Source: Candidatus Poribacteria bacterium
GTDB taxonomy: Bacteria; Poribacteria; WGA-4E; WGA-3G
Length of the DNA stretch: 64,000 nucleotides
NCBI GenBank assembly: GCA_963663765.2
Contig: CAXXUA010000006.1
Span: 288,001 to 352,000 of the forward strand
Direction: 5' to 3'
The stretch's first letter is position 1. Each line of letters starts with the position of its first letter. Under the pieces are notes generated by a model. That model was not told where the DNA came from, did no database searches, and saw only the letters and a list, made by a program, of their open reading frames with translations. Positions 44,021 to 54,489 of this stretch are shown piece by piece. Made by a program: the position numbers and the translations under genes.

Positions 44021-45109
44021 ATGGCAAAACAGATAGCACTATTCAATCATAAAGGTGGAGTCGGTAAAACAACAACAACTTTTAATCTTGGTTGGATGCT
44101 GGCAGAAAAAGGGAAAAAGGTCATTATCGTTGACTGTGACCCGCAGTGCAATCTCACGGGAATGGTGCTTGGGTTTAAGGGTAGCGATGATTTTGCGTCA
44201 ATGTATGCATCCGATGGTGTAACCAATATCAGAGATGGATTGGCACCCGCTTTTGAATCACAACCTGTGAACATTGCACCTGTAAAATGTGTATCAATTG
44301 ATGAACAACCGAACATGCACCTCTTGCCGGGACACATCGGTCTGGCAGAATATGAAGTTACGTTGGGAATTGCTCAGGCACTAACAGGTTCACTGATAAC
44401 GCTTCAGAATTTACCGGGGTCCTTGAATTATCTATTTAACAAAACCGCAGAAAAGTATGATGCTGATTATATTTTGATAGATATGAGTCCGAGTTTGGGA
44501 CCGATCAATCAAAATTTATTGACGACAAGTGACTATTTTATTGTTCCGATGTTTCCAGATTACTTCTCAGCGATGGCGACAGAGAGTCTCGCTTCAATCT
44601 TACCCAAATGGTCAGCGTGGGCAGAAAACGCTAAGACATTGGACATACTCAAAGATGCGATATATCCTTTTCCAGGCAAACACCCTAAATTTCTTGGAAC
44701 GATAATTCAGAATTATAACATCAGGAAAGGAAAACCTGCTGCTGCTTTTAATCAATGGATTCATGAGATACAAAAAGGTGTCCAAACAAAACTTATGCCT
44801 GCGTTAGGTGATAGCAATATGCTCCTACCGGATGAAATCTATTATGAGGCGAGTATGATTGGATCTGATGTAAAGCAGATACCTCTTTTTTTTGACGGCA
44901 TTGCAAGCCAGCCGATTCTCCAATTACCTAATTTCAATACGCTTATTCCGCTTTCCCAAAAATATAACGTTCCGATATTTAATTTAACCGATGCACAGCT
45001 TGAAAAAGAAGGGAACGTCCTTGAAAATATGAAAAAATCTATGAAGAAGTTTCGTGTTTTATTTTCTGATGGGGCAGATCGGATAATAACTCTTACCGAC
45101 AATGCTTAA
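44021..45109 (+). CDS. ParA/Soj-family ATPase (orphan, HEPN-associated type)
   Basis: FNHKGGVGKTTT, VDCDPQCNLT, LIDMSPSLG; long C-terminal part; no ParB adjacent. Confidence 0.88.
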   Translation: MAKQIALFNHKGGVGKTTTTFNLGWMLAEKGKKVIIVDCDPQCNLTGMVLGFKGSDDFASMYASDGVTNIRDGLAPAFESQPVNIAPVKCVSIDEQPNMHLLPGHIGLAEYEVTLGIAQALTGSLITLQNLPGSLNYLFNKTAEKYDADYILIDMSPSLGPINQNLLTTSDYFIVPMFPDYFSAMATESLASILPKWSAWAENAKTLDILKDAIYPFPGKHPKFLGTIIQNYNIRKGKPAAAFNQWIHEIQKGVQTKLMPALGDSNMLLPDEIYYEASMIGSDVKQIPLFFDGIASQPILQLPNFNTLIPLSQKYNVPIFNLTDAQLEKEGNVLENMKKSMKKFRVLFSDGADRIITLTDNA

Positions 45110-45683
45110 TCCTATAGAACAATTTCGGGAGAATATAACACGAATACGTGATCTCGGTGGTGTGTATACAACTTTTAGTAATGTTACGACTGCTGTAGTT
45201 GATTTAACGGATTTGTTACGCGCACAAATCGTCATGATTGTGAGTGCACATGACCTTTATGTCCACGAGATCACAAGAGCGGGTATGTTGGAAATCTACA
45301 ATGGAAACCGACCACAAACGGATTCTTTTTTACGATTTCAGGTAACTTTAGGTACAGCAATAGATGGTATTGCCAACCCCACTGTAAGCGATTGGCTTGA
45401 TATAGAAATCCGAGAAAGACATAGTCACTTATCATTTCAGGTTTCGTCATGTGAGTTGTGGCCGTCTGTAGCGCGAGAACTTCACATTGATGTTCAAGAT
45501 GTAAAAAATCGGGTGCGTGCAATCGTCAAGCGCCGCAACCAAATTGTCCATGAGGCTGATTTAGATCCCACCTACCCAGGCACTATTATCAGAAGATCAA
45601 TCACTCCTGCAGACGTAACAAGCACAGTTGATTTTATCCAAGATGTTTGCGAAGCAATTGACACCATTTCCAGTCAAACCTAA
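45102..45683 (+). CDS. HEPN-domain protein (RiboL-PSP-HEPN-like), putative RNase
   Basis: LLRAQIVMIVSAHDLYVHE helix and Rx4H motif RRNQIVH; overlaps the ParA stop by 8 nt. Confidence 0.78.
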   Translation: MLNPIEQFRENITRIRDLGGVYTTFSNVTTAVVDLTDLLRAQIVMIVSAHDLYVHEITRAGMLEIYNGNRPQTDSFLRFQVTLGTAIDGIANPTVSDWLDIEIRERHSHLSFQVSSCELWPSVARELHIDVQDVKNRVRAIVKRRNQIVHEADLDPTYPGTIIRRSITPADVTSTVDFIQDVCEAIDTISSQT

Positions 45684-47244: not shown

Positions 47245-47348
47245 GCTATATTATCTCCTAAATGTAATGAATCTCACTTTTGCGTGAGTTTTGTGTTAAG
47301 TTTTCTGGCAGTTTGATTGCACTGCACCTATTTATTTTGTTGAGTTTG

Positions 47349-48258: not shown

Positions 48259-48371
48259 GTTGTTTAATCTCCTAAAGATTTTGAAATGAATCTCACTTTT
48301 GCGTAAGTTTCATGTTAAGTTTTCGGGCAGTTTGAATGAACTGCATCTATTTATTTTACTAAGAGTGATTT

Positions 48372-48401: not shown

Positions 48402-48786
48402 TATCATTTTTTCTGAATCACTGAGGTCGTGATTCTGTCTGAACCAGGATTTTCAGATTAGCAGGATTAGAGTCTGAAGCAGTTGGGTTCCATTCCGAAA
48501 AATCACTTGCGATCAGCAAAAACACTTGTGTCTGTCTGAACCAGGATTTACAGGATTTTGAGTTTTTCAGGATTAGTGTCTGAAGCAGTTTGGTTCTATT
48601 CCGAAGATAGCTATAGGTTCCATTCCGAAGACAGCCTTGCGATCAGAAAAACTCTTGAAGCGGTAAATCCTGGTAATCTGGTAATCCTGTAAATCCTGGT
48701 TCAGACGAGAGGGCGCGCTTACAAAGCACCAAATCAAGAAATCAACGGTATGAATGCCATTTAGGCATTCCCCGCCTGCATTTGGG

Positions 48787-49464
48787 TTATCGTTTGTTTT
48801 TGATGCTTCCCCATGTAGTTGTAAGTTTGGATTTTGGGTCTACGGGAAAGCTTGTTTCGCCGAAGTATTCGATTTCGCCAAGTTGAAAGTTCTGTACGGT
48901 TTCAAAAGCAATAAACCGAAAAAACCGATATCCGGTTTTTGGCTCTTCGTAATCATCGCCTGCATCAAAACGGATGACTTGCAGCCGCTCAGTCCACAAA
49001 CTACCGCCGTCGTGAGAAAAGATGGTCGTGAAATCCTCGCCGTTGTTCGACCCCTGTATTTCCCAGACTGTTGGGTCCCTATTAGGAGTATCGTTCGCTG
49101 AAGATACGGTGAAATGTGTCAATGCGTATGCCTCTTCAAACTCAGCAGTTACGTGTATGCCTCCCGCCGGAAGGCTTTGAGGTCCTCAGCACCATTTTGC
49201 ATTACCGCCGCCGAGTTGGTTATCAAAGACGTTAAACGCATTTTCACCGCCGCCGAATCCGGGTTCCTCGCTAGATGTGAACGTGGCGTTGTATCCTTCA
49301 TCTGCGTCAGCAGCACCGTCGTCTTCTGGGTCGGTGAGGTCGCCGCCGAGCAGTGATGCTGTTTGTGTGCCTAAGACTTTTTCTGCATGTGCTATATCGC
49401 TCGTGTTGATAACAAAACAGGCTATCATCAACACAATTCCTGCGAATACCAAGATAGATTTCAT
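48787..49464 (-). CDS. Discoidin-like paralog 3 with in-frame TGA at a Cys position: candidate selenoprotein (225 aa, KWC-U-GP); alternatively a nonsense pseudogene
   Basis: ORFs 49186-49464 and 48787-49122 are in one frame; single TGA at 49186-49188 aligns to the second Cys of KWCC; downstream hairpin; rest of gene intact. Confidence 0.75.
49159..49175 (-). promoter_or_regulatory. Putative bacterial SECIS hairpin
   Basis: mRNA UGA-GGACCUCAAA-GCCUUCC-GGC-GGGAGGC: 7-bp stem, G-initiated loop starting 18 nt after UGA. Confidence 0.65.
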
Positions 49465-49950
49465 GATGTTTTATCTCCTAGATGTAATGAATCTCACTTT
49501 TACGTGAGTTTCATGTTAAGTTTTTGTGCAGTTTGATTGCACTGCACGTATTTATTTTTACTAACTTGTGTTCTACCATAACATATTTTAAATAAAAAGT
49601 CAATATCATTTTTTTCTGAATCGCTGAGGTCGCGAATCTGTCTGAACCAGGATTTTCAGGATTAGCGTCTGAAGCAGTTTGGTTTCCATTCCGAAGATAG
49701 CCTTGCGATCAGGAAAATTCCTTGTGTCTGTCTGATCTAGGATTTTCAGGATCTTGAGATTAGCAGGATTAGTGTCTGAAGGAGTTTGGTTCCATTCCGA
49801 AGATACACATAGGCGTCAACTTAAGGATTTTAACCTCTTGTGGGAGGGGTTTGCAACACCGATTTTATGTGCATTTCCGCTCAAATCGGTGTTGCAAACC
49901 CCTCCCACAAGAGAAAAAGAACCCTACATCAACAGAAAAGGACAAACGAT

Positions 49951-51840
49951 CTACTTAATCTCCCACAGCAGCAACTGCCCCTTCTCATCCCGGCTTGCCA
50001 ACGTCGTGCTGAACGCAGCGAATTCCAGTTGAACAATAGTGTCATTACCACCAGTAAACGTCTGCAGCACCGCACCTATCGTGGCATCCAAGATGTTAAT
50101 CATCCCTTGAGAATACCCCACCGCGAGTTTCTCCCCATCCGGATGATACGCAATGCAACTCACAATAAGCTTCGGTTGCCCAAAATGTGCTTTGACCCTA
50201 TATGTGCTGGTGTCCAACAGATGAATGTTGCCGCGTCGGTCAGCAATTGCGAGTGTGTTCCCATCCGGACTATAGGCAACACACCTTATGTCGTTTATCT
50301 GCGGTTTGATGTCAGGTTTTCTCTCGCCAGTGTTCGCATCCCAGAAACACACCTTCCTATCATAACTGACAGTCACAAGCGTCTTCTTATCCGGACTATA
50401 GGCGACATCACTAATACCATTTGAATGTTCTATAAGTGTCCGTTTCCTCAGATGTATGTTTGCATCCCACATCTGAACAGTCTTATTCTCGCAACCCATT
50501 ACCAGCGTGTTCCCATCCGGACTATAGGCGACACTTATAACACCATCACTATTCACCTCCAGTGTCTTTCCTCTTCTAATCTTGTTGCGATCCCACAGAC
50601 GGACTGTGCCGTCACGATTCGCAGTTGCTATCGTTCTGCCATCCGGACTGAACGCAACATCATAAACTAAGGTTTGTCGTCCGCTATTGTAAGTCTTTAG
50701 TAATTTGCCGGTCGCCGTATCCCAAAGACACATGTAGCTTACCCTACTCGGAGAGACGATGGACTTGCCATCCGGACTGAAAGCGAAACAGAAAAAACCG
50801 CCAAAATGTTCTTTTTCGGTGTGCCTGTTCTTACCGGTAGCAACGTCCCACACACGCAACGTGCCATCATGACTGCCACTCGCGATGGAACGCATATCGG
50901 GACTGAACGAAATCGCTCGAATTGGCTCGCGATGTCCTTTCAGAATTTGCTTCTGTTCGGCTGTGCTTGTCTGGTAAATTACAATTGAATTGAAGTTTTG
51001 ATCCGCAGCGAAGAGACTACCTTCTGGACTGAAAGCGATGCGGCTTGAACCTCCGAACTTACCAGCAATTGTATGTGTCTGTTTCCATGTCTCCGTGTTC
51101 CAGAGACTGACGGCACTAAACATACCCGAACCCGCCAAAGTTGTGCCATCCGGACTGAACACCAGAGACATAATAAACCCCGCATCTGTTTCAAGTGTGT
51201 GCTTGTGTTCGCCAGAAAGTAGGTCCCACAACTTCACTTGTTTGTGATAAGGTCCAGTCGCAAGCAACATATCTACGGTACTGATCGCATAAGTATGCAC
51301 ACCTTCATGCAGTTCTTTAATCTTACCAATTTCCTGCAGTTTTTTACCGGTATCAAGCGACCAATGTCTGATGTATCCAGCCTTGTCTACTGTCACAAGC
51401 AATTTCGCATCGGGTGTGATACCGACGACTTGGATATTGTCTTTGTCGTCAACAAGATCTTGAAGTTCATATTGAAGGTCTCCTGTTTTGCTGTTCCATA
51501 GATTGACATTACCCCTCATGTCCAGAGCGACAAGCCGTTCACCATCCGGACTGAACACGAGTTGGTCAACAGAGGTACGGGTATTCGTCAGCAAGTGCTG
51601 CGGTTGGAATGTGACCGCGTCGTATAGCCAAATGCCGTTAGATGTTGCCACCGCCAGCTGCCTGCCGTCAACACTGTATTTGACATCGTATATAAGTCCT
51701 TTACCGAGTCGTGCTCTTGCACCATCGGGTAAGCCGAAAAAGGTGTGCGGTTCTTGCGCAAAAACTTCGGGCAGGTAGAGTGTTGAAAAGCTCAAGATGA
51801 GTATGTATATTGTGATGTGTATTCGGTTTTTGGTTTGCAT
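49951..51840 (-). CDS. Secreted WD40-repeat protein, tandem copy 1
   Basis: MQTKNRIH signal peptide, LPDGARARLGKG, WD40 repeats; AGGAGG RBS. Confidence 0.88.
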   Translation of the reverse strand: MQTKNRIHITIYILILSFSTLYLPEVFAQEPHTFFGLPDGARARLGKGLIYDVKYSVDGRQLAVATSNGIWLYDAVTFQPQHLLTNTRTSVDQLVFSPDGERLVALDMRGNVNLWNSKTGDLQYELQDLVDDKDNIQVVGITPDAKLLVTVDKAGYIRHWSLDTGKKLQEIGKIKELHEGVHTYAISTVDMLLATGPYHKQVKLWDLLSGEHKHTLETDAGFIMSLVFSPDGTTLAGSGMFSAVSLWNTETWKQTHTIAGKFGGSSRIAFSPEGSLFAADQNFNSIVIYQTSTAEQKQILKGHREPIRAISFSPDMRSIASGSHDGTLRVWDVATGKNRHTEKEHFGGFFCFAFSPDGKSIVSPSRVSYMCLWDTATGKLLKTYNSGRQTLVYDVAFSPDGRTIATANRDGTVRLWDRNKIRRGKTLEVNSDGVISVAYSPDGNTLVMGCENKTVQMWDANIHLRKRTLIEHSNGISDVAYSPDKKTLVTVSYDRKVCFWDANTGERKPDIKPQINDIRCVAYSPDGNTLAIADRRGNIHLLDTSTYRVKAHFGQPKLIVSCIAYHPDGEKLAVGYSQGMINILDATIGAVLQTFTGGNDTIVQLEFAAFSTTLASRDEKGQLLLWEIK

Positions 51841-52139
51841 GTGTGTGTGCCTCCTGTGCGTTTTCTCAAGGTCGTTATATTTATTATACTCAACCTGCAG
51901 GATCATGACAAGGGGTTGTCTGAATTGCGTCCTCCGCGCTTTTGTCTGAATCAGGATTTTCAGGATTATCGGATTTCCAGGATGTCCCTTGTCAATGTTT
52001 TTTGATGTGCGTTTATGCTTACTTTTGAAATAGAATTTGATGAGAATAATCCTGGTAATCTGTCCATCCTAATTCAGACAATAAACAAGAATATCACAAG
52101 AGAAAAAGAACCCTACATGAACAGAAAAGGACAAACTAT

Positions 52140-54122
52140 TTACTCAATTTCCCACAGCAGCAACTGCCCCTGCCTATCCAGGCTTGCCAACGTCGTGCTG
52201 AACGCAGCGAATTCCAGTTGAAAAACTGAGGTGTCACCACCAGTAAACGTCTGCAGCACTGCACCTGTCGTGGCATCTAAGATGTTAATTTTCCCTTGAG
52301 AATACCCCACCGCGAGTTTCTCTCCATCCGGATGATACGCAATGCTACTCACAATAAGCTGCGGTTGCACAAAATGTGCTTTGACCATAGAGGTGCTGGT
52401 GTCCAACAGGTGAATGGTGCCGCGTTGGTCAACAATTGCGAGTGTGTTCCCATCCGGACTATAGGCAACACACATTATGTCCTTTATCTGCGGTTTGATG
52501 TCAGGTTTTCTCTCGCCAGTGTCCACATCCCAAGAACGTATCTTCCCATCATAACCGACAGTTGTAATCGTCTTGCTATTTGGACTATAGACGGCATCCT
52601 TAATACCATCATTGTCTGCCTTAAAACCATCTTTGTGTTCTCTCAGTGTCCGTTTCTTCTCTTGTATGTTTGCATCCCACACCTGAACAGTCATATCCCC
52701 GCAACCCATCGCAACCGTGTTCCCATCTGGACTATAGTCAATACACATAACACCCTTCCTATTCACCTCCAGCATTTTTCCCCTTCTAATCTTGTTGCGA
52801 TCCAACAAACGGATTGTGCCGTTCCGACTCGTCTTTGTTATCGTTCTACCATCCGGACTGAACGCAACATCAGAAACTAAGGTTTGTCGTCCTTTATTGT
52901 AAGTTTTTAGTAATTTGCCGGTCGCCGTATCCCAAAGACACATGTAGCTATCATCACTCGGAGTGACGATGAACTTGCCATCCGGACTGAGAGCGAAATA
53001 GGAAAAACCGCCAAAATGCTCTTTTTCAATATGCCTATTTTTGCCGGTAGCAATGTCCCACACACGCAACGTGCCATCACGACTGCCACTCGCCATAGAA
53101 CGCATATCGGGACTGAAAAATATTGCTTGAATGGTATCGCTATGCCCTTTCAGAATTTGCTTCTGTGCGGCTGTGCTTGTCTGATAGATTACAATTGAAT
53201 TGAAGTTTTGATCAACAGCGAACAGGCTACTTTCTGGACTGAAAGCGATGCTGCCTGAGCCACCGAACTTTCCAGCGATTGTGTGTGTCTTTTTCCACGA
53301 TTCCGTGTTCCAGAGACTGACACCACCGAAAATACCCGAACTCGCTAACGTTGTACCATCTGGACTGAACACCAACCGATCAGCAGACCACAATTCACCT
53401 ATCTCAAGCTTGTGCTTGTGTTCCCCAGAAACGAGATCCCATAACACCACTTTGTTAGCATTGTTAATAAAAGGAGTTCCAAACGCGAACAACAGATTTA
53501 CCGGACTGACGGCATAACTTCTCACACCCCGGTTCAGTTCTTTAGTCTTATCAATCTCGTGCAGTATTTTACCGGTATCAAGCGACCAATGTCTGATGTA
53601 TCCAATCCTATCTACTGTCACAAGCAATTTCGCGTCAGGCGTGATGCCGATGACTTGGACATCATTTTTGTGTAAAAGATGTTTGTGTATATGTTGATCT
53701 CGTTCTACAAGTTGGTCTTCGGCTACAAGTAGGTCTTCGGCTACAAGTTCATATTGATGCTCGCCTGTTCTGCTGTTCCACAGATTGACATTACCCCTCA
53801 TGTCCAGACCGGCAAGCCTTTCACCATCCGGACTGAACACGAGCTGGTCAACAGAGGCACGGGTATTCGTCAGTAAGTGATGCGGTTGGAAGTTGACCGC
53901 ATCGTATAGCCAAATGCCGTTAGATGTTGCCACCGCCAGCTGCCTACCATCAACACTGTATTTGACATCGTATATGATGCCTTTTCCGAGTCGTGCTCTT
54001 GCACCATCGGGTAAGCCGAAAAAGGGTTTCGGTTCTTGCGAAAAAACTTCGTGCCGGTAGAGTGTTGAAAGGGTCAAGATGAGTATGTATATTGTGATGT
54101 GTATTCGGTTTTTGGTCTGCAT
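52140..54122 (-). CDS. Secreted WD40-repeat protein, tandem copy 2
   Basis: Paralog of copy 1; start set at MQTK. Confidence 0.88.
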   Translation of the reverse strand: MQTKNRIHITIYILILTLSTLYRHEVFSQEPKPFFGLPDGARARLGKGIIYDVKYSVDGRQLAVATSNGIWLYDAVNFQPHHLLTNTRASVDQLVFSPDGERLAGLDMRGNVNLWNSRTGEHQYELVAEDLLVAEDQLVERDQHIHKHLLHKNDVQVIGITPDAKLLVTVDRIGYIRHWSLDTGKILHEIDKTKELNRGVRSYAVSPVNLLFAFGTPFINNANKVVLWDLVSGEHKHKLEIGELWSADRLVFSPDGTTLASSGIFGGVSLWNTESWKKTHTIAGKFGGSGSIAFSPESSLFAVDQNFNSIVIYQTSTAAQKQILKGHSDTIQAIFFSPDMRSMASGSRDGTLRVWDIATGKNRHIEKEHFGGFSYFALSPDGKFIVTPSDDSYMCLWDTATGKLLKTYNKGRQTLVSDVAFSPDGRTITKTSRNGTIRLLDRNKIRRGKMLEVNRKGVMCIDYSPDGNTVAMGCGDMTVQVWDANIQEKKRTLREHKDGFKADNDGIKDAVYSPNSKTITTVGYDGKIRSWDVDTGERKPDIKPQIKDIMCVAYSPDGNTLAIVDQRGTIHLLDTSTSMVKAHFVQPQLIVSSIAYHPDGEKLAVGYSQGKINILDATTGAVLQTFTGGDTSVFQLEFAAFSTTLASLDRQGQLLLWEIE

Positions 54123-54489
54123 GTGTGTGTGCCTCCTGTGCGTTTTCTCAAGGTTAATATATTTATTATACTCAACCTGCAGGAACATGGCAAGAGGATG
54201 TCTGAATTGCGTCCTCTGTGCTTTTGTCTGAACCGGGATTTTCAGGATTATCGGATTTCCAGGATGTCCCTTGTCAATGTTTTTTGATGTGCGTTTATGC
54301 TTACTTTTGAAATAGAATTTGATGAGAAAAATCCTGGTAATCTGCAAATCCCGGGGAATGCCATTGGGCGAATGCGCGTGTGGCATTCGCCATGATTCAT
54401 ACCGTTGATATGTGAATCCTGGTTCAGACAAAAAACAAGAATATCACAAGAGAAAAAGAACCCTACATCAACAGAAAAGGACAAACGAT

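Follow-up and report, generated by a model that had tools for sequence, protein, structure and literature searches.

The hairpin that directly follows an in-frame UGA codon in one of three tandem paralogs in the window (the whole 64,000-nucleotide stretch of Candidatus Poribacteria contig CAXXUA010000006.1 that was analyzed) is very probably the bSECIS of a real selenoprotein gene, with the UGA as its selenocysteine (Sec) codon. This assignment is drawn from the sequence and its comparison with homologs, and the gene is likely a new selenoprotein gene from a sponge-symbiont bacterium. The features of the locus are collected in Table 1.

Table 1. Features of the Sec locus and its tandem paralogs (positions in the window).
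Feature	Position	Strand	Details
Probable selenoprotein gene	48787..49464	-	225 codons plus stop, one in-frame UGA at codon 93; basis: translation with TGA=U
Signal peptide, predicted	49384..49464	-	residues 1-27, MKSILVFAGIVLMIACFVINTSDIAHA, A-x-A site; basis: inspection of translation
Cys92 codon TGC	49189..49191	-	first residue of the vicinal pair
UGA codon 93, probably read as Sec	49186..49188	-	aligned with the second Cys of KWCC
Spacer, UGA to stem	49176..49185	-	10 nt; GGACCTCAAA / GGACCUCAAA
Probable SECIS hairpin	49159..49175	-	5' arm GCCUUCC 49175-49169, loop GGC 49168-49166, 3' arm GGGAGGC 49165-49159
Cys paralog P0001	47560..48258	-	KWCCGPNGGIPDDGLH; without hairpin
Cys paralog P0002	46549..47244	-	KWCCGPANGVPEDGLH; without hairpin; gene-conversion mosaic with the Sec gene

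The Sec gene was recovered in the genome search as a single frame with one TGA. It is split or truncated by gene callers. The translated protein scored 33.1 bits against Pfam PF00754 (F5/8 type C; cut-off 28.2), compared to 28.4 bits for P0001 and 26.5 bits, beneath the cut-off, for P0002. An AF2 model of the Sec protein (pLDDT 85.2) retrieved CBM32/discoidin β-sandwiches in Foldseek with E-values of 8.6e-9 to 1e-5 and TM scores (target) of up to 0.75. Both the PF00754 match above the gathering score and the β-sandwich fold place the Sec protein among F5/8 type C (discoidin/CBM32) domains. Residues 2-21, in the signal-peptide region, form a helix in the model, and a hydrophobic N-terminus followed by AQAEE/AHAEK is kept across alignment A2. 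The product is likely an exported protein of ~200 residues with a predicted discoidin/CBM32 fold. Its motif KWCUGP corresponds to KWCCGP in the two tandem paralogs, and residues K90, W91, C92 and C93 are invariant in 51/51 aligned homologs (A2), including those from Planctomycetota and Verrucomicrobiota. Because the adjacent Cys92 and Sec93 are the sole thiol-type residues of the mature protein, they point to what may be a vicinal selenenylsulfide redox center or a metal/chalcogen-binding center. To our knowledge, Sec sits in the redox active site in nearly all known selenoproteins, and its occurrence in place of one cysteine of an invariant adjacent pair thus flags a putative functional center.

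The homologs P0014, P0022 and P0053 are named PEP-CTERM proteins at NCBI. This name was rejected: P0001 had no match in NCBIfam at E ≤ 0.01, and its tail past PVDP, KAKLTTTWGSIKNNK, is a polar sequence without a membrane-spanning stretch. The neighboring genes encode two WD40 β-propeller proteins, a HEPN RiboL-PSP protein and a ParA-like protein, and suggest no functional link to the Sec gene.

The first-pass annotation had described 10 nucleotides after the UGA, followed by a 7-bp stem with one G-U pair and a loop that starts with G 18 nucleotides from the codon. Both the sequence and RNAfold bear this out: the stem has seven pairs including one U-G, the loop begins at the 18th nucleotide past the UGA, and the minimum free energy (MFE) structure is the 49175-49159 hairpin, with an energy of -9.5 kcal/mol for the isolated 17 nucleotides and -11.0 kcal/mol in a 30-nucleotide context. 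In a positional scan for stems of ≥7 bp with ≤1 G-U pair, a loop of 3-5 nucleotides with G in loop positions 1-2 and a loop start at +16 to +24, hairpins followed 900 of the 263,021 TGA trinucleotides genome-wide (0.34%), or 1.2% when stems of ≥6 bp were admitted. The 60-nucleotide fold after the UGA had no excess stability compared to shuffled sequences (z = -0.18), and total folding energy by itself is therefore non-significant. An alternative conserved structure was looked for in the same 60 nucleotides and none was seen, and a Rfam scan of positions 49050-49300 at E up to 10 matched no family. In the published model (PMC13188914), a bSECIS has a loop of 3-9 nucleotides, a stem of 4-16 bp, G in loop positions 1-2, a spacing of 16-37 nucleotides and an MFE ≤ -7.5, usually with the apex pattern N1-G-[G|U]-N-N2. 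Compared to this model, the window's hairpin has a 3-nucleotide GGC loop on a 7-bp stem, an apex, C-GGC-G, that fits the pattern, and a spacing of 17 nucleotides, as against 20 nucleotides in the second of two Sec lineages (the window's gene belongs to class A and the second lineage is class B). Its energy also lies within the limit, which a few class A members narrowly miss.

Folding of the three paralogs revealed the hairpin in the Sec gene and no equivalent in either Cys paralog, with local MFEs of -11.0 for the former and -3.5 and -2.4 for the latter. The peptide after the site is UGPQSLPAGGIH in the Sec protein and CGPNGGIPDDGLH and CGPANGVPEDGLH in the paralogs. As the translations confirm, the Sec version is one residue shorter than, and unlike, both Cys versions while the flanks are conserved. 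Family-wide, the core TTCC-NNN-GGRA occurs in 26/26 Sec ("WCU") rows, one gene being included twice (L091 = L037, same place), versus 15/67 Cys rows. A local MFE ≤ -7 was found for 22/23 Sec genes (range -12.1 to -6.8) versus 8/65 Cys genes, with means of -8.9 and -4.75, respectively. Tree and energy counts left out fragments of <195 aa and any row that contained an X or >1 TGA (L069 and others); one Sec gene, L047, is present in alignment A1 and lies outside the core, energy, synonymous-window, dN/dS and within-genome counts. In 17/17 genomes with both forms, each Sec hairpin was stronger than each Cys paralog's. Near-equivalent hairpins are found in some Cys genes, for example L049 (-8.2) and L075 (-7.8), and a strong but unrelated hairpin (-12.1 and -11.7) occupies this site in two Cys genes of family f4. 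Thus, the initial claim that the hairpin is present only in the TGA-bearing paralog holds for the window and for the 17 genomes with both forms, but not across the family. Phylogenetically independent Sec/Cys contrasts number only four to six, too few for a sign test to reach significance; the hairpin behaved as expected in two to three and in the opposite way in none.

Of 37 genomes of the genus, about 20 contain a full-length homolog with a single in-frame TGA. Across 25 distinct orthologs, which come from about 20 Poribacteria species, the position of the UGA codon is identical. None of the aligned Sec genes lacks the stem: a UUCC-NNN-GGRAGG hairpin is present in 25/25, with loops of GGC or GGA save for AGA in L066. 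The dN/dS ratio past the UGA was 0.161 in class A (55 pairs) and 0.204 in class B (45 pairs), alongside 0.176 and 0.233, respectively, before it, at a mean dS of about 0.5. Purifying selection operates downstream of the UGA and therefore the segment after the codon is translated. In Sec genes, variation over the hairpin is also suppressed at synonymous sites. The peptide GIPEEGLH is specified by identical codons, GGC-ATT-CCG-GAG-GAA-GGC-CTA, in 9/9 Sec genes that encode it, whereas the codons vary in 40 Cys genes with the same peptide (CCG in 23, GAG in 19, and GGC for the second Gly in only five). Among the 188 segments of seven codons scored in class B, the one over the hairpin ranks first for lack of codon variation and is the only one in the gene with zero variation; in class A it takes third place of 188. 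The Cys genes put it at rank 151 of 191, where it is more variable than the gene average. This conservation beyond the need of the protein among UGA orthologs is the evolutionary signature of a bSECIS. Covariation among TGA homologs, proposed as a check in the first-pass annotation, was weak: four of eight pairs are invariant and two show a double change, in one sequence each, giving a score of 0.096 versus 0.083 for shuffled data, with 28/500 shuffles reaching 0.096. What carries the structural case is therefore invariance and the suppression of synonymous variation, not compensatory change.

The two Sec lineages hold the hairpin by different means. Class A lacks one codon, and the replacement of I by L there puts a C-G pair where an A.G mismatch stood, whereas class B has a homologous hairpin on the same peptide as Cys genes, through synonymous codon choices alone. 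The hairpin can therefore form without remodeling of the peptide, and the earlier suggestion that the coding sequence was locally remodeled to hold the RNA structure is apt for class A but not for class B. Codons for G-I-P-E-E-G are inherently self-complementary, and Cys genes contain a quasi-palindrome, UUCC-AGA-AGAAGG, in their I-P-E-E-G codons. The SECIS probably evolved from this pre-existing quasi-palindrome, and it overlaps the codons of a surface loop that is variable in length. An unconstrained tree implies at least three Sec/Cys changes on starred branches and a tree that groups all 23 Sec genes was not rejected (p-AU 0.334); the paralogs are also gene-conversion mosaics. Broken copies were seen in relatives: L049 has a TGA at a conserved Trp, and L069, L070 and L068 have extra stops or frameshifts.

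The genome possesses the machinery for Sec insertion: selA (620.8 bits), selB (361.6 bits), selD, which itself has an in-frame TGA, and a tRNA-Sec gene (78.5 bits) located 54 nucleotides downstream of selB all exceed curated cut-offs. As selA surpasses its cut-off in 58/61 relatives, its distribution is non-discriminating. TGA otherwise is a normal stop codon that ends 457 of 2,438 ORFs of ≥300 codons. Many other redox genes in the genome contain UGA, including formate dehydrogenase and AhpC/TSA-type UxxC genes. Other Sec-UGA sites are followed by stems of 6-7 bp with GGUCU, AGU, GGC, GUU or GGA loops 18-21 nucleotides after the UGA and energies of -4 to -10 kcal/mol. The features by which a selenoprotein is recognized, namely a UGA on a conserved Cys, orthologs with UGA, Sec machinery and purifying selection downstream, are all found for the window's gene.

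The hairpin might be kept for a reason other than Sec, such as selection on the amino acids of the loop, transcript stability or a translational pause that serves export, with the UGA recoded through another element. The weaker version of the hairpin in 15/67 Cys genes, the different strong hairpin at the same place in two f4 Cys genes and the weak covariation would suit this explanation. Yet it is improbable: synonymous variation over the hairpin is suppressed in both Sec lineages but not among Cys genes, each of the 17 genomes that contain the two forms has its stronger hairpin in the Sec copy, no alternative conserved structure is apparent in the 60 nucleotides past the UGA, and position, loop and energy fit the genome's other SECIS elements as well as the bSECIS model.

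Stop-codon read-through in other systems can be stimulated by hairpins downstream, and the UGA could be decoded without Sec, for instance by a suppressor or by a near-cognate tRNA for Trp or Cys, while the hairpin serves as a generic stimulator. The chance of this is slight: the UGA aligns with an invariant Cys as in the classic Sec/Cys pair, the full Sec machinery coexists with many other Sec genes that have similar hairpins, and TGA is a normal stop elsewhere in the genome. Slighter still is the prospect of a pseudogene in which the TGA is a nonsense mutation and the hairpin a product of chance. Three tandem paralogs do provide redundancy, broken copies exist in relatives, and IPEEG codons yield chance partial hairpins in Cys genes. 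Against this stand the shared codon position of the TGA in 25 distinct sequences (about 20 species) with the frame intact downstream, a dN/dS ratio of 0.16-0.20 past the UGA that equals that upstream, the invariance of the hairpin at synonymous sites in Sec genes only and the complete Sec machinery. Together with the agreement with the bSECIS model, these results uphold the initial view that a random nonsense mutation is an inadequate explanation.

With the hairpin as a bSECIS, the established bacterial pathway suggests that SelB-GTP with Sec-tRNA(Sec) would bind the apical C-GGC-G, which, 17 nucleotides past the UGA, would lie near the point where mRNA enters the ribosome. SelB would then deliver Sec at the UGA in place of termination by release factor 2. 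The element resembles the bSECIS type exemplified by E. coli fdhF and fdnG and modeled in bSECISearch, being an in-coding stem-loop just 3' of a Sec-UGA that agrees with the model in its four properties of loop and stem, G in the loop, spacing and energy. The fdhF SECIS has GU in the loop and a bulged U, whereas the window's hairpin has a GG triloop (a pentaloop if the closing C-G opens) and no bulged U; it also differs from known bSECIS elements in being built on a coding quasi-palindrome common to Cys homologs, and it has no Rfam match. The SECIS elements of AhpC/TSA-type UxxC and formate dehydrogenase genes in the same genome are alike in their uninterrupted 6-7-bp stems and small loops, and presumably are served by the same SelB as the discoidin Sec gene. 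They differ in spacing (18-21 nucleotides, versus 17 in the window's gene and 20 in class B), their stem sequences are unrelated, and the host protein here is not of thioredoxin fold.

The protein shares its β-sandwich with CBM32/discoidin domains such as Clostridium perfringens GH89 CBM32-5 (4a44) and the accessory domains of Neobacillus novalis GH92 (7nsn), the latter matching the C-terminal half of the family profile at E = 2e-20. Unlike in these structures, there is an invariant K-W-C-C/U motif and an N-terminal DLTDPEDDG segment outside the aligned part, and the domain makes up a predicted secreted protein of its own, which closes with a short tail, PVDPKxKLTTTWGSIK. We know of no selenocysteine in the CBM32/discoidin fold. 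Animal thioredoxin reductase, a flavoenzyme with a eukaryotic 3'-UTR SECIS, has a Gly-Cys-Sec-Gly redox center in its flexible C-terminus. Both proteins have adjacent Cys-Sec followed by Gly (W-C-U-G in the window's protein), which could form an eight-membered selenenylsulfide ring, but here the pair is internal in a β-sandwich that is predicted to be exported and the SECIS is of the bacterial in-frame kind.

No mention of discoidin, carbohydrate-binding, lectin or Poribacteria selenoproteins was found in the available portions of PMC13188914, PMC12013277, PMC13326102 and PMC9312934, although the BSepDB/deep-Sep family lists could include the family, and a literature search on selenocysteine and the discoidin domain in bacteria returned unrelated papers only. 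A wider proposal is offered tentatively, as a reasonable possibility that falls somewhat short of a likelihood: the genes may constitute an undescribed, lineage-specific family of extracellular selenoproteins with a stand-alone discoidin/CBM32 domain, in which the two invariant neighboring cysteines (Cys-Sec in some 20 species of Poribacteria) would be a redox-active or chalcogen/metal-binding center, the SECIS would have been tuned from the quasi-palindrome of Cys genes so that Cys-to-Sec conversion takes a few synonymous changes plus TGC>TGA, and gene conversion would spare the UGA-SECIS module as a unit. If so, a fold that bears the label "carbohydrate-binding module" would carry out chemistry, in a domain that is widespread (Poribacteria, Planctomycetota, Verrucomicrobiota), uncharacterized with respect to redox and annotated just as discoidin or "PEP-CTERM". 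On the selenoprotein reading by itself, the bacterial selenoproteome gains a member that is not of thioredoxin fold and is predicted to be exported, and the Poribacteria sponge symbionts emerge as selenoprotein-rich. The locus also offers a clean natural example of a SECIS assembled in a coding region from a self-complementary codon run of a tolerant surface loop, and sets of Sec and Cys paralogs in single genomes provide a ready system for the study of SECIS requirements and of the advantage of Sec versus Cys.

RNA-library contigs from two studies cover the gene from end to end, such contigs not being proof of transcription. One RNA-library contig of 762 nucleotides has 26 differences, of which none lies between 49151 and 49203, so that the UGA and the hairpin are intact there.

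The Sec protein opens with a signal-peptide-like N-terminus, followed by the conserved DLTDPEDDG and the NAKWCUGP motif. A beta-sandwich of discoidin type comes next, and the protein ends in a short polar tail, PVDPKSKLTTTWGSIKNKR. The two Cys paralogs P0001 and P0002 are 71–76% identical to the Sec gene and have the motifs NAKWCCGP and NDKWCCGP. The Pfam F5/8 type C family (PF00754) matches all three proteins, with the Sec protein and P0001 above the gathering score and P0002 marginally below it. The first-pass annotation had described a 7-bp stem with one G-U pair and a loop starting with G after the UGA, which was borne out by the sequence and by folding. Translations confirmed that the encoded peptide differs from those of the Cys paralogs and is one residue shorter, and neither paralog forms such a hairpin when folded. 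The isolated hairpin has an energy of -9.5 kcal/mol and the UGA-to-loop distance is 17 nt. The 60-nt fold after the UGA gained no stability over shuffled sequences (z = -0.18), and energy by itself therefore proves nothing. A comparable hairpin at comparable distance lies downstream of just 0.34% of the 263,021 TGA trinucleotides in the genome when the stem is at least 7 bp, and 1.2% when it is at least 6 bp. No Rfam model matches the hairpin region. The bacterial selenocysteine insertion sequence (bSECIS) model summarized in the Fig. 2 legend of PMC13188914 specifies a loop of 3–9 nt that has a G among its first two nucleotides, a stem of 4–16 bp, a spacing of 16–37 nt and a minimum free energy (MFE) of -7.5 or lower. 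The hairpin agrees with this model in all four respects, and its C-GGC-G apex conforms to the usual pattern N1-G-[G|U]-N-N2. The hairpin is an ordinary bSECIS on every structural criterion that could be tested.

Features of the Sec gene, its neighborhood and related loci (window coordinates unless a genome and contig are named)
Feature	Position	Strand	Description
UGA codon	49188-49186	minus	in-frame in Sec gene
Spacer	between UGA and stem	minus	GGACCUCAAA
Hairpin	49175-49159	minus	GCCUUCC-GGC-GGGAGGC; 7 pairs including one U-G, 3-nt loop
Sec gene	49464..48787	minus	225 codons; one unbroken protein when TGA is read as U
Cys paralog P0001	48258..47560	minus	directly downstream of Sec gene, same strand
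Cys paralog P0002	47244..46549	minus	same strand, downstream of P0001
C-terminal tail of Sec gene	48790-48846		PVDPK-x-KLTTTWGSIK-x-x-R
WD40-repeat beta-propeller genes	49951-51906; 52140-54431	minus	tandem; 651 and 763 aa
ParA/MinD-like ATPase gene	44021-45109	plus	end overlapped by HEPN gene
HEPN RiboL-PSP gene	45102-45683	plus	PF18735, E = 1e-12
REP-like 30-nt repeat	48747-48776	plus	palindromic; contains GAATGCC-ATTTA-GGCATTC; directly past Sec gene stop
Further REP-like copies (9)	17896, 18069, 18135, 18590, 28074, 28196, 35453, 39581, 42069	plus	
Inverted repeats	49493-49548; 48327-48344; 47273-47325		5' of the three paralogs' start codons
Homologous locus L069	G015:C170:150722-152009	minus	KWUCGP
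Homologous locus L049	G001:C3:623245-623934	minus	KWCC
UGA-bearing genes elsewhere in window's genome (G000)	C5:150463-150828; C5:472289-473413; C6:87407-88231; C8:52546-52932; C15:303703-304074; C5:1756583-1760625; C13:519218-520489; C2:220603-221529		several arranged as tandem pairs

Decoding of the UGA would proceed through the ordinary bacterial Sec pathway. The genome that contains the window (6.35 Mb; 15 contigs; 41% G+C) possesses complete Sec machinery, comprising selB with tRNA-Sec directly behind it, selA, and a selD that itself has an in-frame TGA. TGA otherwise is a normal stop codon that ends 457 of 2,438 long ORFs. The genome is selenoprotein-rich: a formate-dehydrogenase-type molybdopterin enzyme (FDH) contains SRAUHAP, an in-frame TGA occurs in 10 of the 24 AhpC/TSA-family matches, and several of these genes show the UxxC-type contexts WUPYC, WUPFC, GGUGIC or WUGC. 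The window's hairpin, with its 7 bp, GGC loop and 17 nt distance, fits the style of other post-UGA hairpins in the genome. These have 7-bp stems in FDH (loop GGUCU, 18 nt after the UGA) and in Prx2, Prx5 and Prx7 (loops AGU, GUU and AGU, respectively; 21 nt), and 6-bp stems in Prx3 (loop GGC) and in Prx8 and Prx9 (loop GGA), again 21 nt after the UGA. No strong simple hairpin follows the UGA at the Prx1, Prx4, Prx6 and SelD sites.

Homologs were detected in 38 of the 61 related genomes searched, and in 33 of 36 within the genus when the window's own genome is left out. The homologous loci in named records all belong to Candidatus Poribacteria MAGs, mostly sponge-derived. Many full-length homologs have exactly one in-frame TGA. 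The 114 distinct genes extracted from fetched loci comprised 87 with WCC, 26 WCU rows, in which one gene is entered twice and a further Sec gene (L047) is not represented, and one broken WUC copy. All WCU genes have the TGA at the second position of the Cys pair. The Sec form occurs in about 20 of 37 genomes of the genus and was absent from all 24 genomes searched in three other families; homologs in Planctomycetota and Verrucomicrobiota, all with WCC, are longer proteins of several domains. The dN/dS ratios downstream of the UGA (0.161 and 0.204) matched those upstream (0.176 and 0.233), with dS averaging ~0.5. Translation therefore extends through the 3' two-thirds of the gene, and the alternative that the TGA marks a pseudogene is ruled out. 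Locus L069 has the TGA at the first codon of the pair with an intact hairpin of the second Sec class, but is probably a pseudogene as a second TGA and a broken frame lie downstream.

The core TTCC-NNN-GGRA is present in 26/26 Sec rows compared to 15/67 Cys rows, with TCCC in five more of the latter. Local MFE values (30 nt) averaged -8.9 in 23 Sec genes, with extremes of -12.1 and -6.8, whereas the mean of 65 Cys genes was -4.75. Values of -7 or lower were seen in 22 of the former and eight of the latter. Every Sec row retains the core, and comparable hairpins are not equally common in Cys homologs. The proposal that the hairpin is confined to the TGA-bearing paralog holds in the window and in all 17 genomes with both forms, in which each Sec hairpin is stronger than that of each Cys paralog, but not family-wide. 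A few Cys genes, L049 and L075, match Sec genes in hairpin strength, and two genes of family f4 have an unrelated hairpin of equal strength at the same place. L049, whose strong hairpin (-8.2 kcal/mol) is of the Sec type, has a TGA in place of a conserved Trp (DPTEUEVQG) and probably is either a one-time Sec gene in decay or the result of a sequencing error.

As the Sec and Cys rows are kin, tests independent of counting relatives were sought. For the identical peptide GIPEEGLH, nine of nine Sec genes share the codon series GGC ATT CCG GAG GAA GGC CTA, whereas codons vary among 40 Cys genes (CCG in 23, GAG in 19 and GGC for the second glycine in only five). GGC at this glycine pairs G-C where GGT would pair G-U. 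Codon entropy was ranked across 7-codon windows spanning the gene. The hairpin window of class B, the second Sec lineage, is alone in lacking any synonymous variation (rank 1/188), and in class A, which includes the window's gene, it ranks 3/188. The same window ranks 151/191 in 58 Cys genes and hence is more variable than average there. These within-gene comparisons, which control for relatedness, show RNA-level selection coupled to the UGA. Compensatory covariation among the TGA homologs is weak: four of eight pairs are invariant and two have one double change each, and the covariation score hardly exceeds shuffles. Phylogenetically independent Sec/Cys contrasts number just 4–6, too small a sample for a sign test to be significant; the hairpin follows the expected direction in 2–3 of these and the reverse in none. 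Overall the SECIS reading of the hairpin is well supported and very probably correct.

Class A is a clade (SH-aLRT support, 100%) with the peptide UGP-x-S/T/N-LPAGGIH and the stem (G/A/C)CCUUCC-GGC-GG(G/A)AGG(C/U). The class B peptide, UG(R/P)GGGIP(E/A)EGLH, is identical to that of the Cys genes, and its stem, GGCAUUCC-GG(A/C)-GGAAGGCC, contains an A.G mismatch internally, at a spacing of 20 nt. Alignment shows the hairpins of the two classes to be homologous, with the core UUCC-NNN-GGRAGG unchanged throughout. Class A has one codon fewer upstream, and an ATT>CTT change (Ile>Leu) by which a C-G pair takes the place of the A.G mismatch. Local remodelling of the coding sequence, as proposed in the first-pass annotation, therefore describes class A, but is not a requirement since class B obtains its hairpin by synonymous choices alone. 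The I-P-E-E-G codons of the Cys genes (AUU CCA GAA GAA GG) are self-complementary and thereby give these genes a proto-hairpin. The family is a clear example of the assembly of a SECIS from a pre-existing coding palindrome.

Sliding comparison of the window's three paralogs revealed mosaics in which stretches of 90–100% identity alternate between Sec/P0002 and Sec/P0001, including the 5' flank, the signal peptide and +436..+540. The UGA and hairpin region (+256..+301) is only 62–76% identical in all paralog pairs. From these patterns, gene conversion evidently homogenises the flanks and spares the UGA-SECIS module. This is understandable, since a tract that moved either element alone would be harmful. 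The position of P0002 beside the Sec gene in the tree is likewise explained by gene conversion, as is the failure of the tree to reveal how many Cys/Sec switches took place; a tree uniting all Sec genes in one clade was not rejected (p-AU 0.334).

K90, W91, C92 and C93 are invariant in 51/51 aligned homologs from three phyla, and C92 and U93 are the sole Cys-type residues of the mature window protein. The AlphaFold model (pLDDT 85.2, pTM 0.79) is a discoidin/CBM32 beta-sandwich in which W91-C92 forms a short strand. Residues 94–102, encoded by the spacer and hairpin codons, form a loop ahead of a long strand (103–121); the loop has slightly lower model confidence and differs in length among homologs. 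Its tolerance probably let the RNA structure be written into the coding sequence. Animal thioredoxin reductase contains a Cys-Sec couple, and the window protein likewise has Sec beside Cys, then Gly. We infer that the pair may be a vicinal selenenylsulfide redox center or a metal/chalcogen-binding site. NCBI labels some homologs 'discoidin domain-containing protein' or 'PEP-CTERM sorting domain-containing protein'. The latter name was rejected because the tail lacks any membrane-spanning segment and no NCBIfam model matches. The tail is conserved solely in Poribacteria members, is a low-confidence helix in the model, and recurs in additional ~233-aa ORFs of related genomes whose match is limited to residues 188–232. 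One possible role is that of a lineage-specific signal for sorting or anchoring.

Part of the stretch was found in eight metatranscriptome runs from two studies. A 762-nt RNA-library contig spanning 48747-49494 has 26 differences from the window, none in 49151-49203, and the UGA and hairpin thus are intact in a related strain. The RNA-library contigs are compatible with transcription of the Sec gene, but are not proof. The literature searched, which lay outside the BSepDB and deep-Sep supplementary family lists, made no mention of the host family as a selenoprotein, and within that scope the family seems so far undescribed as such. With its vicinal Cys-Sec pair, it seems to be a new family of exported selenoproteins whose fold is not that of thioredoxin.

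The REP-like repeat occurs in 10 copies in the window at ≤3 mismatches compared to 0 expected, and short, high-depth RNA-library contigs with 'goes back' joints stack on it. The WD40-repeat genes, which encode eukaryote-like repeat proteins, adjoin the paralog cluster on its upstream side; no functional connection with the selenoprotein is evident. The HEPN RiboL-PSP and ParA/MinD-like genes may be a small defense or toxin-antitoxin-like pair. The 5' flanks of the Sec gene and P0001 are 82–91% identical. Among the conserved inverted repeats, CTCACTTTT(A/G)CGTGAG lies upstream of the Sec gene and P0002, and GCAGTTTGA(T/A)TG(C/A)ACTGC upstream of all three paralogs; these could be a shared operator or 5'-UTR structure.
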